From IMG/VR virus record IMGVR_UViG_2609459792_000007: a stretch of DNA of 64,000 nt; one strand, given 5' to 3'. Shown piece after piece: positions 23,825 to 30,314 of the stretch (position 1 is the stretch's first letter; every line of letters begins with the position of its first letter). The notes under the pieces are model-generated. The model was given only the letters and a program-made list of their open reading frames with translations, did not search any database and was not told the DNA's origin. The position numbers and the translations under genes were made by a program. The stretch is from a virus. Taxonomy: Duplodnaviria > Heunggongvirae > Uroviricota > Caudoviricetes.

Positions 23825-24898
23825 ATGGCAAAAGGAAAATCCGCACTGGCACTTGCTCTGAAAAAGAAAATCGGTAGCAACGACGAAATTCAGAAAGTAA
23901 CTCATTGGATTGACACAGGCTTTCCTCCGTTAAACAAAGCTATTTCCGGTCGTTACGATGGCGGTTTCCCATGTGGTCGTATCGTAGAAGTATTCGGGCC
24001 GCCAAGCGCGGGGAAAACCTTTTTGGCAACAGCAGCAATGATCTCCGCTCAGAAACAAGATGGTCTGGCGGTATTCCTCGATCATGAGAACAGTTTTGAC
24101 GTTGGCCTGGCGGTAGCCAATGGCTTGAATGCAGATGAGGATGACGGTCAGTGGGTATACAAGCAGCCAGATACCTTCGAAGACTCTGTAGAGTTGATCG
24201 GCACAATACTTAAATTGGTACGTGATGAAGAGCTTATCCCTGAATCAGCACCTATCTGTATCGTGGCTGACTCACTTGCGTCTATGGTTCCGAACTCCAA
24301 AGCCGAGAAGTTCGAAAAGATGGCTGAAGGCACTGCTAAAGACAAAGATCAGCTAAACATGAACGACAATACGGCGCTTGCTCGTGCGACGAGCGCAAAC
24401 TTCCCCACTCTGGCTTTGTGGGCACGCAAATATAACGCCTGCATTATTTTCTTGAATCAGGTTCGCACAAAAATCGGTGTAATGTTTGGCGACCCTACGA
24501 CGTCGCCAGGCGGCGATTCACCGAAGTTTTACGCTTCTGTGCGCATCCGTCTCGGTGCATCGGTGATGAAGGATGGTAAAGAGAAGATCGGTCAGGACGT
24601 AGGCGCAGAGTGCATCAAAAACAAAGTTGCACCACCGTATGGCAAGTGCACCTGGAAATTCTACTTCGATCCTACTCGTGGCCTCGACGTTATCGAATCG
24701 CTCGTCGAGTACATGCTGGAAGAAGGATACCTGCCAAAGAACGCCAGCGGTCGAGTAGAAATTGGTGACAAGAAATACACCAAATCACAGATCGTCGAGA
24801 TGTATCGGGAGAAGCCACTAGCTGAAATCATTGCGGCTTTACAGGCAATCGACGACCGGAGATCAAAAGACAATCCCACCGAGTCAGTAGAAGAGTAA
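23825..24898 (+). CDS. RecA-like recombinase
   Basis: Walker A GPPSAGKTFLA; RecA-like core VEVFGPPSAGKT...FLDHENSFD. Confidence 0.8.
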   Translation: MAKGKSALALALKKKIGSNDEIQKVTHWIDTGFPPLNKAISGRYDGGFPCGRIVEVFGPPSAGKTFLATAAMISAQKQDGLAVFLDHENSFDVGLAVANGLNADEDDGQWVYKQPDTFEDSVELIGTILKLVRDEELIPESAPICIVADSLASMVPNSKAEKFEKMAEGTAKDKDQLNMNDNTALARATSANFPTLALWARKYNACIIFLNQVRTKIGVMFGDPTTSPGGDSPKFYASVRIRLGASVMKDGKEKIGQDVGAECIKNKVAPPYGKCTWKFYFDPTRGLDVIESLVEYMLEEGYLPKNASGRVEIGDKKYTKSQIVEMYREKPLAEIIAALQAIDDRRSKDNPTESVEE

Positions 24899-24902
24899 AC
24901 AC

Positions 24903-24927
24903 AAGGCGTCCACAGGACGCCTTTTTT
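24903..24927 (+). terminator. Terminator after RecA-like gene
   Basis: aaggcgtcc-aca-ggacgcctt hairpin plus T6. Confidence 0.7.
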
Positions 24928-24990
24928 ATCTCTTGAAAATATATAAGTACTTACTTATCATTTTCACATAACAACCACATAGGAAAACAC

Positions 24991-25191
24991 ATGATCAAAA
25001 TCTATCTATTGGCAGTAGCCACAGGCCTTTCAGTGGCTCTCATCTACGGATTACTGGTTCCGTCGCTGATTTCTGCAAAGAGTGATTTGGCCGTCATGCT
25101 TGGAGTTATTGTTGGTTTTGGCGCTCCAGTAATCGGTCTTATTGGTGGTCGTAAGTTTATTAACTCATTAATCAAAGCAAAGGGGAAATAA
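24991..25191 (+). CDS. Small two-TM membrane protein
   Basis: 66 aa; two hydrophobic segments; stop 4 bp before SPFH gene start. Confidence 0.45.
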   Translation: MIKIYLLAVATGLSVALIYGLLVPSLISAKSDLAVMLGVIVGFGAPVIGLIGGRKFINSLIKAKGK

Positions 25192-25194
25192 GTA

Positions 25195-26025
25195 ATGAAG
25201 AAAGGTTTACTTGCAGTTGCTCTGGCGGCTATTTGCACAATGGGTCTTACTGGCTGTGATCGCGTAGAGCCTGGATACGTTGGCATCAAAGTAAACAAAT
25301 TAGGTGAAGACAAAGGGATTGGTGAAGTGGTTGGCGTTGGTCGCCAATGGACAGGTCTTAACACCGAACTTTACGTATTCCCGACCTTCAAACAAATGAA
25401 GACCTACGACGAGCCGTTCACATTCCAGATGAGTGACGGTACTGCTATTGGTCACAAAATTGGCGTTGCGTATCTGGTTAATCGTGACAAGGTAACGACG
25501 GTGTTCCAGACCTATCGCAAAGGCGTAGACGATATCACCGAATCAGATCTGCGTCAGAAAATTGCCGACTCTCTAAACCGTTTGGCCAGCCGTATGACCA
25601 CTGACTCATTTATCGACGGTGGTAAGGCACAATTGTTGGACAACGCACTGAAAGATATTCAGAAAGAGATGTCTCCGGTTGGTATTGAGGTACTGAGCCT
25701 GTCATGGGTTGGAAAGCCTGATTACCCAAAAACCGTCATTGAATCTATCAACGCCAAAGTAACGGCTAACCAGCGTACTCTGCAACGTCAGCAGGAAGTC
25801 GAACAGCGTAAAGCTGAGGCGAATATGCTGCGTGAACAGGCTAATGGTGAAGCTGATGCTATCCGTGCTCGTGCGCAAGCAGAAGCAGACGCCATTCGTC
25901 TGCGCGGTGAAGCTCTGCGTCAAAACCCGAACGTTATGGAACTGGAAGCCATCAATAAATGGAATGGCCAGTTACCGCAGTACATGACTCAAGGGGCTAA
26001 CACTCCTTTCATTACAGTGAAATAA
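25195..26025 (+). CDS. SPFH/band-7 (prohibitin-like) lipoprotein
   Basis: Signal peptide with lipobox LTGC; SPFH-like core; C-terminal Ala/Glu/Arg-rich coiled coil. Confidence 0.55.
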   Translation: MKKGLLAVALAAICTMGLTGCDRVEPGYVGIKVNKLGEDKGIGEVVGVGRQWTGLNTELYVFPTFKQMKTYDEPFTFQMSDGTAIGHKIGVAYLVNRDKVTTVFQTYRKGVDDITESDLRQKIADSLNRLASRMTTDSFIDGGKAQLLDNALKDIQKEMSPVGIEVLSLSWVGKPDYPKTVIESINAKVTANQRTLQRQQEVEQRKAEANMLREQANGEADAIRARAQAEADAIRLRGEALRQNPNVMELEAINKWNGQLPQYMTQGANTPFITVK

Positions 26026-26043: not shown

Positions 26044-26066
26044 GGCGTCCAGTTGGACGCCGTTTT
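26044..26066 (+). terminator. Terminator after SPFH gene
   Basis: ggcgtcc-agtt-ggacgcc hairpin plus T-run. Confidence 0.6.
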
Positions 26067-26120: not shown

Positions 26121-26945
26121 ATGCCCAACCACATTACAAACGAAATCCGAGTCATAGGTGGTACAAATAAACAACGCTTAGATTTCATACGTGCCATAAC
26201 TAACAAAAAAGGTCTAATTGACTTTAATACCATTTGCAGACGTCCGAAAAGTATAGAAATGGAAGAAAACAATCATATCAGGCGCATGGCCTCTGCAATG
26301 GCGGGCGAAACAGTTTACGACTACATGTTCGGTGAATTAAAGACTCCAGAACAGGTCGAATTAGCTATGCGTGAATCTGGAATGACACGCAAGGAAATTC
26401 GCAAAATCAAAGAGCAGGCTCTTATGCGGCTTGAGAATTATCGTCGCTATGGCTATTACTCATGGTTTGACTGGTCGCGAGCTAATTGGGGAACAAAATG
26501 GAATGCCTACAACATCGAAATGCCCGTAAAACGTATCCCTACACGTATTAAGTACGGCCATAATTTCCGCCATACACACATTCGAGCATATGCAAAACGA
26601 ATCTATAAAAAACGTCTTGCAAGACATGCCGCAACTGGTGGTGAGTTGGTGATTCGCTTTGAAACAGCCTGGTCTATGCCAAAACCAATTTATCAAGCGA
26701 TGGCTAGAAAGTTCCCGCACCTTGAGTTTGTAATACGTTATGCAGACGAAGACTTCGGCAATAACTGCGGATTCATTTTACTTCGCAACGGCAAATGGGA
26801 ATATGACTACATTGCACCGGCGAATAACGAACAATCGTCAGAAGAAAAAATCAAATGGCGCAAGTTCGCCTTTGAGTTATGTTGTCCTGGTATCACTCCA
26901 CAAGAATACGGTCTAAATGAAGAATACGAATACGCCGGATATTAA
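26121..26945 (+). CDS. Hypothetical protein (Trp-rich, basic)
   Basis: 274-aa ORF in AT-rich island; no confident family assignment. Confidence 0.45.
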   Translation: MPNHITNEIRVIGGTNKQRLDFIRAITNKKGLIDFNTICRRPKSIEMEENNHIRRMASAMAGETVYDYMFGELKTPEQVELAMRESGMTRKEIRKIKEQALMRLENYRRYGYYSWFDWSRANWGTKWNAYNIEMPVKRIPTRIKYGHNFRHTHIRAYAKRIYKKRLARHAATGGELVIRFETAWSMPKPIYQAMARKFPHLEFVIRYADEDFGNNCGFILLRNGKWEYDYIAPANNEQSSEEKIKWRKFAFELCCPGITPQEYGLNEEYEYAGY

Positions 26946-26990
26946 AGAATTGTCATTTGGCTTTACGCTCGAAGCATAGTGGTTAAGAAG

Positions 26991-27731
26991 ATGAAAAGAA
27001 AAATTGAAGAACCAAAAACGACACTTAATAAACATGGGGAAAAAATTCAAACACACCCAGCGTTCGGTCTTGTGAAAACAAGCCGTGTTAGCACGACTGG
27101 CATTCGTCTATTTGATTCAGAACTGGAACATAGAGACTATATTGAAATAGGCGTTTACGAGGCTGAACTGTCCTTAGACAATGAACGAACCCGGCCACAA
27201 AGGAGTAGCAATAGACGGCCTTTAGTTGAAATTAGACTTAGCCAGGCACAATGGGCTGCTATGGTTAGCAGTTTTGGTGTGGGCGAAGGTGTGCCATGCA
27301 CTATTTCATATAAAACCATTGGCGACTCAATTAGAGTTCATGATATTGCCGAGCAAAAAAGTATTCGGCAAAAATTCAACGATCAAATAAAGGCAGCTAC
27401 GAATAGTGAGATTGATCGACTTAATCAGCAAGTTTCAGAGCTAGGTGAGCTTGTGAAAAAAGGAAGAGCTGGAAAACGTGACCTTGAAGAACTATATAGA
27501 AAACTTGCATCTGCTGTAGCTAACCTTCCTGAAAATCTGTGCTTTGCTACCGAATTAATGCAGGAGCAAATGGATGAAATTGTCTCATCTGGAAAGGCGG
27601 AGATTGAGGCGTATGTTGCAGGCACTGTTATGCGTAAAGGGTTAGCAGCATTAGGCACAGAATCATGCATTAACGATGATCCTACTGTCTCTATCACCAA
27701 AATGGAAAGCGGTAAAGAATTACTGCCATAA
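26991..27731 (+). CDS. Hypothetical protein
   Basis: ORF; ATG at 26991 preferred over GTG at 26979. Confidence 0.4.
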   Translation: MKRKIEEPKTTLNKHGEKIQTHPAFGLVKTSRVSTTGIRLFDSELEHRDYIEIGVYEAELSLDNERTRPQRSSNRRPLVEIRLSQAQWAAMVSSFGVGEGVPCTISYKTIGDSIRVHDIAEQKSIRQKFNDQIKAATNSEIDRLNQQVSELGELVKKGRAGKRDLEELYRKLASAVANLPENLCFATELMQEQMDEIVSSGKAEIEAYVAGTVMRKGLAALGTESCINDDPTVSITKMESGKELLP

Positions 27732-29763: not shown

Positions 29764-29978
29764 GTTTACAGTAAAATTTATATAAGTTAGTATCTACCTA
29801 TCATGAAGATTTTTATTGAATACTTGTTACTCATCGTGTCAATAGCTTTTGTCATCGACTGCATTTTCACTGGTGTCATTCGTAAAGTCTTTTCCCCGGT
29901 GAACGACGTAGTCATAAACGCTTTGGCTATCGTGCTCGTATTTAATTCAGCATTTGATGTAATCAAAGAGGTGGCAGC

Positions 29979-30314
29979 ATGAAGGCCATCCCATTTGCGC
30001 TGTTGTTCCTTTCTTCGATCGTTGTGGCCGACACCACTGTTTATCAGTGTGAAATGTCTGTAGCCGACGTTAAGAATGGCGCTCTTACCGACGTCATAAA
30101 AGCACCATATGGAGCGATGGTCGTAGACAGCGGCGACCAGTTCTATGTTGTGCGTGACGATCGAGTGTTGTCATCCCCATATCTCACAAATCGTAATGGC
30201 AAATTAACCGGCGTCGGAGAAGACCACTTCGTATACAACAAATACAAGGGCTTCTATGGCGTTCACGCTTCTCAGCAAAGCTACCTTTTCGATGACTGCA
30301 AGGAGGTTGGATAA
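29979..30314 (+). CDS. Secreted small protein (signal peptide)
   Basis: N-terminal MKAIPFALLFLSSIVVA signal-like segment; two Cys. Confidence 0.45.
   Translation: MKAIPFALLFLSSIVVADTTVYQCEMSVADVKNGALTDVIKAPYGAMVVDSGDQFYVVRDDRVLSSPYLTNRNGKLTGVGEDHFVYNKYKGFYGVHASQQSYLFDDCKEVG

Follow-up and report, generated by a model that had tools for sequence, protein, structure and literature searches.

In the 64,000-nucleotide (nt) stretch of virus DNA analyzed here (IMG/VR record IMGVR_UViG_2609459792_000007, hereafter the window), which is an SSU5/pHCM2-type phage-plasmid of Escherichia coli, a gene for a 66-amino-acid (aa) membrane protein is directly followed by a gene for a 276-aa lipoprotein of the SPFH/Band-7 superfamily. 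We consider it probable that the two products form an SPFH assembly that faces the periplasm from the inner membrane, with the small two-helix hairpin protein as its partner. The broader explanation that we favor, in which the two genes constitute an accessory unit (a "moron") and the SPFH assembly guards the inner membrane, stands in our judgment at about even chances of being correct as a whole.

The SPFH lipoprotein and its hairpin partner

The SPFH core proposed for the lipoprotein in the initial annotation of the window was confirmed by profile search, structural model and fold comparison alike. The score with the Pfam profile PF01145 (Band_7/SPFH) was 106.2 bits (cut-off 23.6), and the alignment paired residues 23-209 with profile positions 2-176 of 176. 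An AlphaFold single-chain model built on 78 diverse homologues (predicted local distance difference test score, pLDDT, 89.8; predicted template-modelling score, pTM, 0.70) starts with a signal helix, which is followed by the alpha/beta SPFH core (residues 21-176), by one helix of 65 residues (179-243) and by a short one (245-255); the tail is less certain, the last 40 residues having pLDDT values of only 48-74. Comparison of this model with the PDB using Foldseek gave full-length matches to HflK, prohibitin, HflC, erlin, stomatin, flotillin, QmcA and major vault protein (MVP), all with a probability of 1.00 and E-values from 1e-14 to 1e-8, the best being HflK (7vhq_E, E=2.9e-14). The best-matching solved SPFH proteins have all been deposited as large oligomeric complexes or cages. 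As judged from the model, the window protein is a true SPFH protein of cage-forming architecture, and its long helix would be the counterpart of the wall-forming helices in SPFH cages. The C-terminal coiled coil that had originally been described is thus retained in the form of a single long predicted helix, which is then followed by the short one. A weak Pfam Flotillin match (residues 208-266, E=8e-4) was below the cut-off. Moreover, in the C-terminal motif listed in Table 1, W256 is kept by all of the 78 sequences, down to about 31% identity, and G258 and P261 by nearly all of them; this motif is a candidate cap or oligomerization element.

Regarding export, the N-terminus of the SPFH protein, MKKGLLAVALAAICTMGLTG followed by C21-D-R, fits the PROSITE-style lipobox pattern [LVI][ASTVI][GAS]C at C21, in line with its first description as a lipoprotein. 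All of 10 diverse phage homologues retain the lipobox Cys, as do most of 143 representatives; the sequence C-D-R at the cleavage site is found in about 95 of 120 close enterobacterial homologues, and about 14 close homologues have Tyr, Trp or Phe instead of the Cys. A subset of the distant representatives has no Cys near the N-terminal hydrophobic segment, which suggests, as far as the sequences can be read, an uncleaved transmembrane (TM) anchor as in HflK/C. Asp at position +2 is, by the established +2 rule, the classical E. coli inner-membrane retention residue. On these grounds, the window protein is predicted to be lipidated at Cys21 and retained at the inner membrane and, owing to Asp at +2, most likely on its periplasmic face.

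The resemblance to HflK and HflC was considered separately. Like E. coli HflK/HflC, the phage protein combines an SPFH core with a long and a short helix, and the predicted topology, with the SPFH domain periplasmic at the inner membrane, is the same. HflK was the only solved structure found by sequence, although weakly (E=0.007), HflK and HflC are both among the top structural matches, and HflC and HflK are also the best NCBIfam matches. The protein could accordingly be imagined as an HflK/C mimic that modulates FtsH, the cage capturing or shielding host FtsH from the periplasmic side, altering the turnover of its substrates (CII-, CIII- or Xis-like regulators, membrane proteins, LpxC) and in this way tuning lysogeny or protecting phage proteins; several authors speculate along HflK/C lines. 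We regard such a function as rather unlikely. Orthology was rejected, as the protein scored 30.2 bits with TIGR01932 (HflC; cut-off 134.4) and 18.7 bits with TIGR01933 (HflK; cut-off 159.4), far below both equivalog cut-offs. The structural matches to prohibitin and erlin are just as good, so that the likeness is superfamily-wide, and the identity to HflK/HflC is only about 16-18%. Additionally, there is one SPFH gene and no pair of K/C paralogues, a predicted lipid anchor replaces the N-terminal TM helix, and modulation of FtsH would leave no role for the hairpin partner, which sets the phage system apart from HflK/HflC.

The hairpin partner contains two hydrophobic segments, at approximately residues 4-24 and 33-52 (19-residue Kyte-Doolittle maxima of 2.14 and 2.46, respectively), in agreement with the two-TM protein annotated initially at this position. 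The segments are connected by a short loop with K30 and D32 and followed by a 14-residue tail rich in K and R; this tail and the short loop indicate an N-in/C-in topology, with both ends in the cytoplasm. The signature of its family, PHROG 1130 ("membrane protein"), is Y19-G-x-x-V-P24-x-L-I-S28-x-K-[DS]-[TS] and covers the periplasmic end of helix 1 and the loop. When conservation was assessed over 13 non-redundant homologues, G38 and P46 in helix 2 were found to be conserved, and the cytoplasmic tail was K-rich. The protein has no Pfam, NCBIfam or PADLOC match. Its TAA stop codon (25189-25191) is followed by GTA and then by the ATG of the SPFH gene at 25195, which corresponds to the distance of 4 bp reported before, and both open reading frames (ORFs) share the same frame. 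Candidate ribosome-binding sites are AGGA (24981-24984) and AAGGGG (approximately 25181-25186).

Two-gene operons of an SPFH protein and a small membrane protein are also represented by the SPFH-NfeD operons QmcA-YbbJ and YqiK-YqiJ of E. coli and PH1511-PH1510 of Pyrococcus; QmcA (8z5g) is among the structural matches of the window protein, and the partner plausibly lies in the membrane patch under the cage. However, QmcA and YqiK face the cytoplasm, whereas the window SPFH protein carries an export signal, and the phage partner has no NfeD/OB-fold domain. An NfeD-type partner was rejected because no Pfam or NCBIfam match (PF01957) was obtained and because the whole protein consists of two TM helices and the 14-residue tail, which leaves no room for an OB-fold domain. 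Hence, the small membrane partner supposed in the initial annotation stands as a dedicated two-TM protein, as the gene linkage and fusions described below indicate, but not as a partner of the NfeD kind.

The shape of the hairpin also calls to mind a gated pore or abortive-infection device, in which a holin- or channel-like hairpin effector would be held inactive or clustered by the SPFH cage until superinfection or membrane stress triggers depolarization. Class II holins and pinholins (S21) are of similar size and have two TM helices, an N-in/C-in topology and a highly charged C-terminus, and T4 Imm likewise resembles the hairpin in size, in its two helices and in its charged C-terminal tail. 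SPFH proteins elsewhere regulate channels, and an aquaporin-1-stomatin structure is among the fold matches; in the window protein, helix 2 abounds in small-xxx-small glycine patterns. Strict pairing and fusions would suit an effector and its regulator, and a moron architecture would permit expression in the carrier state. Nevertheless, we consider such a device distinctly unlikely. The glycine pattern is not conserved in the family, in which only G38, P24 and P46 are, a covalent fusion of effector and inhibitor would be unusual, and the pair is frequent in virulent phages, where abortive infection makes little sense. A holin identity of the 66-aa protein was rejected, as no holin Pfam or PHROG match was found, the neighbouring genes are recombination and accessory genes, and only the topology is similar; neither did the searches give a toxin or defence profile match. 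Furthermore, no sequence relationship to T4 Imm or to the holins is detectable, and the hairpin gene lies outside any lysis cassette and is always coupled to an SPFH gene.

Linkage of the two genes among phages and their natural fusions

The SPFH lipoprotein was detected by tblastn in 413 phage records, which include SSU5-like phage-plasmids, phiP27 and Stx2a prophages, P2-like P88, N4-like Schitoviridae, rv5-like Vequintavirinae, FelixO1-like Erwinia phages, Bruynoghevirus, phiCbK, Burkholderia, Vibrio and crAss-like phages, and Lak megaphages. An exhaustive profile search of cluster representatives gave 2,816 matches at E<=1e-3, and 195 at E<=1e-30. Relatives in PHROG 200 have been labelled "lipoprotein", "serine protease", "transposase fusion protein", "stomatin-like" and "HflK", and the members of the pair are annotated in databases as "SPFH domain-containing protein" and "hypothetical protein". 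Where the literature searched comments on the role of the phage SPFH gene, it is given as unknown or, by speculation, as that of HflK/C, and no mention of the small partner or of the fusions was found in the literature searched on phage SPFH genes. The "gp20" of an Achromobacter N4-like phage paper was considered as a family member and rejected, being an unrelated surface protein.

The SPFH gene is immediately preceded by the small gene, in the same orientation, in 79 of 80 IMG/VR loci, and the 80th locus ends at the contig edge. A 60-70-aa two-helix protein with the shared motif is encoded just upstream in P88, phiP27, Moo19, Vibrio CKB-S1 and Burkholderia vB_PR1, and in 4MG the two-helix gene is one gene removed from the SPFH gene. 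PHROG 1130 independently recognizes four of the partners, i.e. the window copy, P88 gp11, Moo19 gp30 (annotated as N4 gp19-like) and an ORF of phiP27. In the same way, the N4 gp20/gp19 homologues, P88 gp12/gp11, SSU5 and phiP27 L05 share the PHROG 200/1130 families, the gene order and the coupling with the window pair. Look-ups of diverse homologues of the small protein led to a Band_7 gene that overlaps its stop codon by 4 nt in all cases (5/5), the contexts being lambdoid prophages (between a CI-like repressor and integrase), P2-like early operons and Burkholderia prophages; in the loci examined, the PHROG 1130 family was found only in phage or prophage contexts. The PHROG 1130 match together with the recurrence in many unrelated phages argues that the pair is no chance coincidence of ORFs. 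It is worth mentioning that the phiP27 partner (NC_003356.1; reverse strand, positions 2316-2504 of locus L003; 62 aa; PHROG 1130 E=2.5e-23), located upstream of L05, is unannotated in RefSeq.

These gene positions also bear on the modulation of FtsH discussed above. The location between repressor and integrase in lambdoid prophages would be in its favor, as the lambda FtsH inhibitor cIII sits in that part of the early-left operon, and a universal target such as FtsH would suit the very wide host range of the family. However, strictly virulent phages (N4-like, rv5-like, FelixO1-like and phiCbK), for which control of lysogeny is irrelevant, commonly carry the pair. In virulent phages the pair is located in early or middle gene regions. 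Genes for P22-gp17-like "superinfection exclusion" proteins (Pfam GP17, 2.9e-46) were observed directly upstream of the SPFH gene in Moo19 and PhiSH19, and the two gp17 homologues, Moo19 gp29 (L004 1891-2202; Schitoviridae) and the PhiSH19 gene (L106 2638-2958; Ackermannviridae), are 61% identical; no such gene was found in the window by tblastn.

In 18 of the 143 full-length representatives, the SPFH protein is fused in frame behind a two-helix unit, which forms an N-terminal extension of 60-100 aa. The order in the fusions is two-helix unit, charged linker, signal-like hydrophobic segment with the lipobox Cys, and SPFH domain, and the lipobox is kept in all 18. The profile of the small protein gave 18-34 bits on 11-13 of the 18 fusion N-termini, compared with a maximum of 7.4 bits in 360 composition-matched shuffles, and two of the fusion ORFs were confirmed on their contigs. 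As Rosetta-stone evidence, such natural fusions indicate that the two proteins have a joint function. They are also informative on topology: a hairpin with cytoplasmic ends, followed by a third helix, would position the SPFH domain on the periplasmic side, with a tether to the inner membrane, and since the two-helix unit can only sit in the inner membrane, the fused SPFH part should be located there as well. As the lipobox is kept, signal peptidase II could cut one precursor into both subunits.

An inner-membrane gene that abuts or overlaps a lipoprotein gene, together with a long periplasmic helix, bears a superficial likeness to spanins, and a lysis accessory could be envisaged in which the inner-membrane protein and the helical periplasmic lipoprotein bridge or disrupt the envelope at lysis. 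We consider this extremely unlikely. In Rz/Rz1 the membrane protein bears the coiled coil and the lipoprotein is tiny, so the present arrangement is inverted; the hairpin is essentially without a periplasmic domain, and Asp at +2 predicts inner-membrane and not outer-membrane localization. Moreover, the genes are found among replication and recombination or early genes, with no annotated lysis gene adjoining in the loci examined, and no spanin PHROG or Pfam match was obtained.

The fusions prompted us to consider a programmed read-through of the TAA codon between the two in-frame ORFs of the window. This is not a general mechanism, as the genes of relatives overlap by 4 nt or 20 nt in other frames. 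In one representative, P0163 (344 aa), the two-helix unit follows the SPFH domain and the usual C-terminal PFIxVK motif is missing; the probable cause is a reversed gene order at this locus together with read-through or a frameshift. Among small phage ORFs of the metagenome contig SRR31638522_16550, one gene (L110 218-520), which is located two genes upstream of a fused gene, encodes an Acb2/Tad1 hairpin domain. The Acb2/Tad1 hairpin domain is known from anti-CBASS and anti-Thoeris sponges.

The cassette in its plasmid setting

The two genes were initially placed in an accessory position after recA, and this proved to be correct, as they form a cassette between two copies of a terminator-like hairpin for which an empty site was found in Klebsiella. 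To the left of the pair are genes for a gp32-like single-strand binding protein, a 5'-3' exonuclease and a RecA/UvsX-like recombinase (Pfam/PHROG profiles), the last of which is directly upstream of the pair (PF00154, E=2.3e-42). The left hairpin ends the recA transcription unit and is at the same time the left copy of the bounding repeat. The stem motif GGCGTCC-N3-6-GGACGCC occurs twice in the 64 kb of the window, i.e. in the two hairpins, compared with 0 occurrences expected. Both copies share the 7-bp stems followed by a T-rich tract and CTC, which suggests gain or loss of the cassette by recombination between the terminator copies. In the Yersinia pestis pMT1-type plasmid pG8786, the site is filled, with the same recombinase, a hairpin, the promoter-like sequence, the 66-aa gene, the 276-aa SPFH gene and a second hairpin in this order. 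In Klebsiella pneumoniae p47733_IncFIB, the recombinase terminator borders directly on what is, in the window, the sequence to the right of the second hairpin, and a single hairpin copy is present; p47733_IncFIB shows a clean empty site. The empty site and the duplicated hairpins lead to the view of the pair as an accessory moron unit bounded by a duplicated terminator. A candidate promoter, proposed on its consensus match only, is located 30 nt upstream of the small ORF; promoter-like sites in this region are not more frequent than in shuffled sequences (4 found, 5.2 expected). Its sequence is nearly identical and in the same place in pG8786, where the coding DNA is only about 80-84% identical. 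This sequence was rejected as a repeated regulatory motif, as it occurs once in the window.

A moron with its own promoter-like site and terminator, which is carried by plasmids of pathogens including those of the Y. pestis pMT1 type, could also serve the bacterial host. In that case, the SPFH protein would be a surface or virulence lipoprotein of lysogenic conversion, contributing to envelope robustness, acting as cargo of outer-membrane vesicles or stimulating TLR2-dependent immunity. A precedent, compared by description only, is the HflK/C-like protein PM0222 of a Pasteurella multocida prophage, reported to be a secreted, TLR1/2-activating virulence factor present in vesicles; PM0222 is likewise a prophage-encoded SPFH protein, but its reported role concerns the animal host and not the phage (PMC9872710). 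We find this function very unlikely for the present family, which is abundant in virulent phages that never form lysogens. Asp at +2, the TM-anchored variants and the fusions favor the inner membrane over the cell surface, and the hairpin partner would be left unexplained.

Concerning prevalence, the DNA of the locus is 99.7% identical to the 109-kb E. coli plasmid NZ_CP019027.1, and for the 1.2 kb around the pair the identity amounts to 98% with Escherichia phage CMS-2020a, to 94% with Cyrano and PhiR41_1 and to 79% with Salmonella phage SSU5. PLSDB contains 246 plasmids with the SPFH cassette. In 195 (about 3.6%) of 5,426 complete E. coli genomes, the cassette is plasmid-borne, and diverged copies were found at 101 chromosomal places, which are presumably prophages. 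Y. pestis pMT1-type plasmids also bear the cassette. Its G+C content of about 0.48 is similar to that of the conserved recombination module to its left, and the stretch to its right (G+C 0.36-0.44) is common to only 25 plasmids. The features of the cassette are listed in Table 1.

Table 1. Features of the two-gene cassette, given as positions in the window
Feature	Position	Strand	Basis
Left terminator-like hairpin, AAGGCGTCC-ACA-GGACGCCTT and T tract	24903..24923	+	Terminator scan; repeat alignment
Sigma-70-like promoter candidate, TTGAAA-17 nt-TATCAT	24933..24961	+	Consensus scan, 10/12 matches
Gene of the 66-aa two-helix inner-membrane protein, PHROG 1130	24991..25191	+	ORF, hydropathy, PHROG profile 3.5e-25
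Gene of the 276-aa SPFH/Band-7 lipoprotein, PHROG 200	25195..26025	+	PF01145 2.6e-30, PHROG 200 3e-108, AlphaFold, Foldseek
Predicted lipoprotein signal peptide (residues 1-20), lipobox L-T-G-C, Cys21 (codon 25255-25257) and Asp22	25195..25260	+	Pattern match
SPFH domain proper (Pfam residues 23-209)	25261..25821	+	Pfam, AlphaFold, Foldseek
Long A/E/R/Q-rich helix (179-243) and short helix (245-255)	25729..25959	+	AlphaFold secondary structure, Foldseek alignments
C-terminal motif A-I-N-K-W-N-G-x-L-P-x-Y-M...P-F-I-x-V-K	25948..26022	+	Homologue alignments
Right terminator-like hairpin, GGCGTCC-AGTT-GGACGCC and T-rich tail	26044..26061	+	Terminator scan; repeat alignment

Several further observations were made around the cassette. 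The region 26121-27731, directly 3' of it, encodes a 274-aa protein with a DUF1281_C/Api92-like ferredoxin-like domain (6.5e-16; PHROG 12644) and a second, helical protein of 250 aa (PHROG 6452); phage Cyrano is without this stretch at this position. The recombinase of the window (23825-24898) has 357 aa, and its homologue in Cyrano is annotated with 779 aa (L001 3656-5995). PHROG 9666 (779 positions) matches the window recombinase in two stretches, the main one aligning residues 65-357 to profile positions 487-779, and in the Klebsiella plasmid NZ_CP107315.1 a "LAGLIDADG family homing endonuclease" is annotated under the recA match. The recA genes of some relatives thus appear to carry an intein or homing-endonuclease insertion near residue 64, which the window copy does not have. 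An antisense ORF (25044-25364, 106 aa) overlaps both genes of the pair and was assumed to be spurious. Finally, the window has at 29860-30314 another small membrane ORF, which precedes the gene of a 111-aa protein whose N-terminus resembles a signal peptide; both are conserved in a Klebsiella phage-plasmid (L108 5111-5622), with identities of 44% and 59% for the two proteins, and the Klebsiella copy is preceded by a sequence resembling the promoter-like site of the cassette (AAAATATATAAGT). The small two-TM ORF at this Klebsiella position (L108 5111-5290, corresponding to 29860-29961 of the window) was considered as a member of the hairpin family and rejected as unrelated (hidden Markov model score -0.8).

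Proposed role of the complex

We propose the following mechanism for what would be an autonomous two-gene moron of the SSU5/pHCM2-type phage-plasmid. The first gene would produce a hairpin with both ends in the cytoplasm and the conserved loop P-x-L-I-S-x-K-D/S directed toward the periplasm. The second gene would be translationally coupled to the first, and its product would be exported and lipidated at Cys21. By analogy with the solved SPFH complexes, copies of the SPFH protein would then come together via the long helix and the C-terminal motif and form a homo-oligomeric ring or cage that covers a patch of inner membrane, and the hairpin protein would be the dedicated integral-membrane subunit that touches the cage by its conserved periplasmic loop. 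In this position, the hairpin could replace the TM anchor of the SPFH protein itself, or an NfeD partner, and link the cage to the cytoplasmic side. Both the oligomeric cage and the physical contact between hairpin and SPFH protein are inferences.

With regard to function, the complex may act as a "membrane guard" that conditions the inner membrane in favor of the phage, being produced either at an early stage of infection or, when the element is maintained as a plasmid, from its own promoter. It could hinder the entry of superinfecting phage DNA, or it could resist membrane damage caused by abortive-infection effectors or premature lysis. A guard or exclusion role specifically is a tentative suggestion, which we would call possible but doubtful. 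It is favored here because of the early or middle position of the pair in virulent phages, the presumably independent transcription of the moron in the window, and the gp17-like and Acb2/Tad1 neighbours mentioned above.

Several points weigh against the proposed assembly and its guard role. The neighbourhood evidence consists of hints from a handful of loci, which could reflect coincidence or co-transfer. The upstream gene is not a hairpin gene throughout the family, as its product has one TM segment in Pseudomonas phage TL and three in phiCbK and is soluble in phiEa104, and the SPFH gene of PhiSH19 has no hairpin partner. As for retention at the inner membrane, Arg at +3 may weaken the effect of Asp at +2 (Lol avoidance). 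Outside the clade, the +2 residue varies, being mostly S/T in the representatives, Y in N4-like Moo19 and E in rv5-like 4MG, so that some relatives could be outer-membrane lipoproteins. A functional study of a phage SPFH protein was not found in full-text literature searches. The initial annotation had described some mobile-element copies as implicated in exclusion or abortive infection, and this statement could not be substantiated: neither protein has a match in PADLOC-DB v2.0.0 at E<=0.1, and the literature gives the role as cited above. We treat exclusion as a hypothesis, because it is weak neighbourhood hints (gp17-like genes in two virulent families) that point to it.

A more specific version of the proposal can also be formulated, in which the lipid-anchored periplasmic SPFH cage would enclose and gate the two-helix protein and thereby form a regulated pore or an inner-membrane plug. 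Such a device, common to hundreds of phage lineages including those with the N4 gp19/gp20 homologues, would exclude rivals or neutralize membrane-acting host defences; we consider it unlikely.

What is new in the membrane assembly proposed here is a dedicated and previously unremarked two-helix partner of the phage SPFH protein, which is sometimes fused to it, and the expectation of a complex that is held at the inner membrane and directed toward the periplasm. A vague annotation is thereby turned into a defined and very widespread system of two components, the topology of which can be tested. Should the complex indeed guard or gate the inner membrane, conflicts among phages and between phage and host would gain a mechanism based on SPFH proteins, and a simple bacterial homo-oligomer would become available as a model for the function of SPFH cages.

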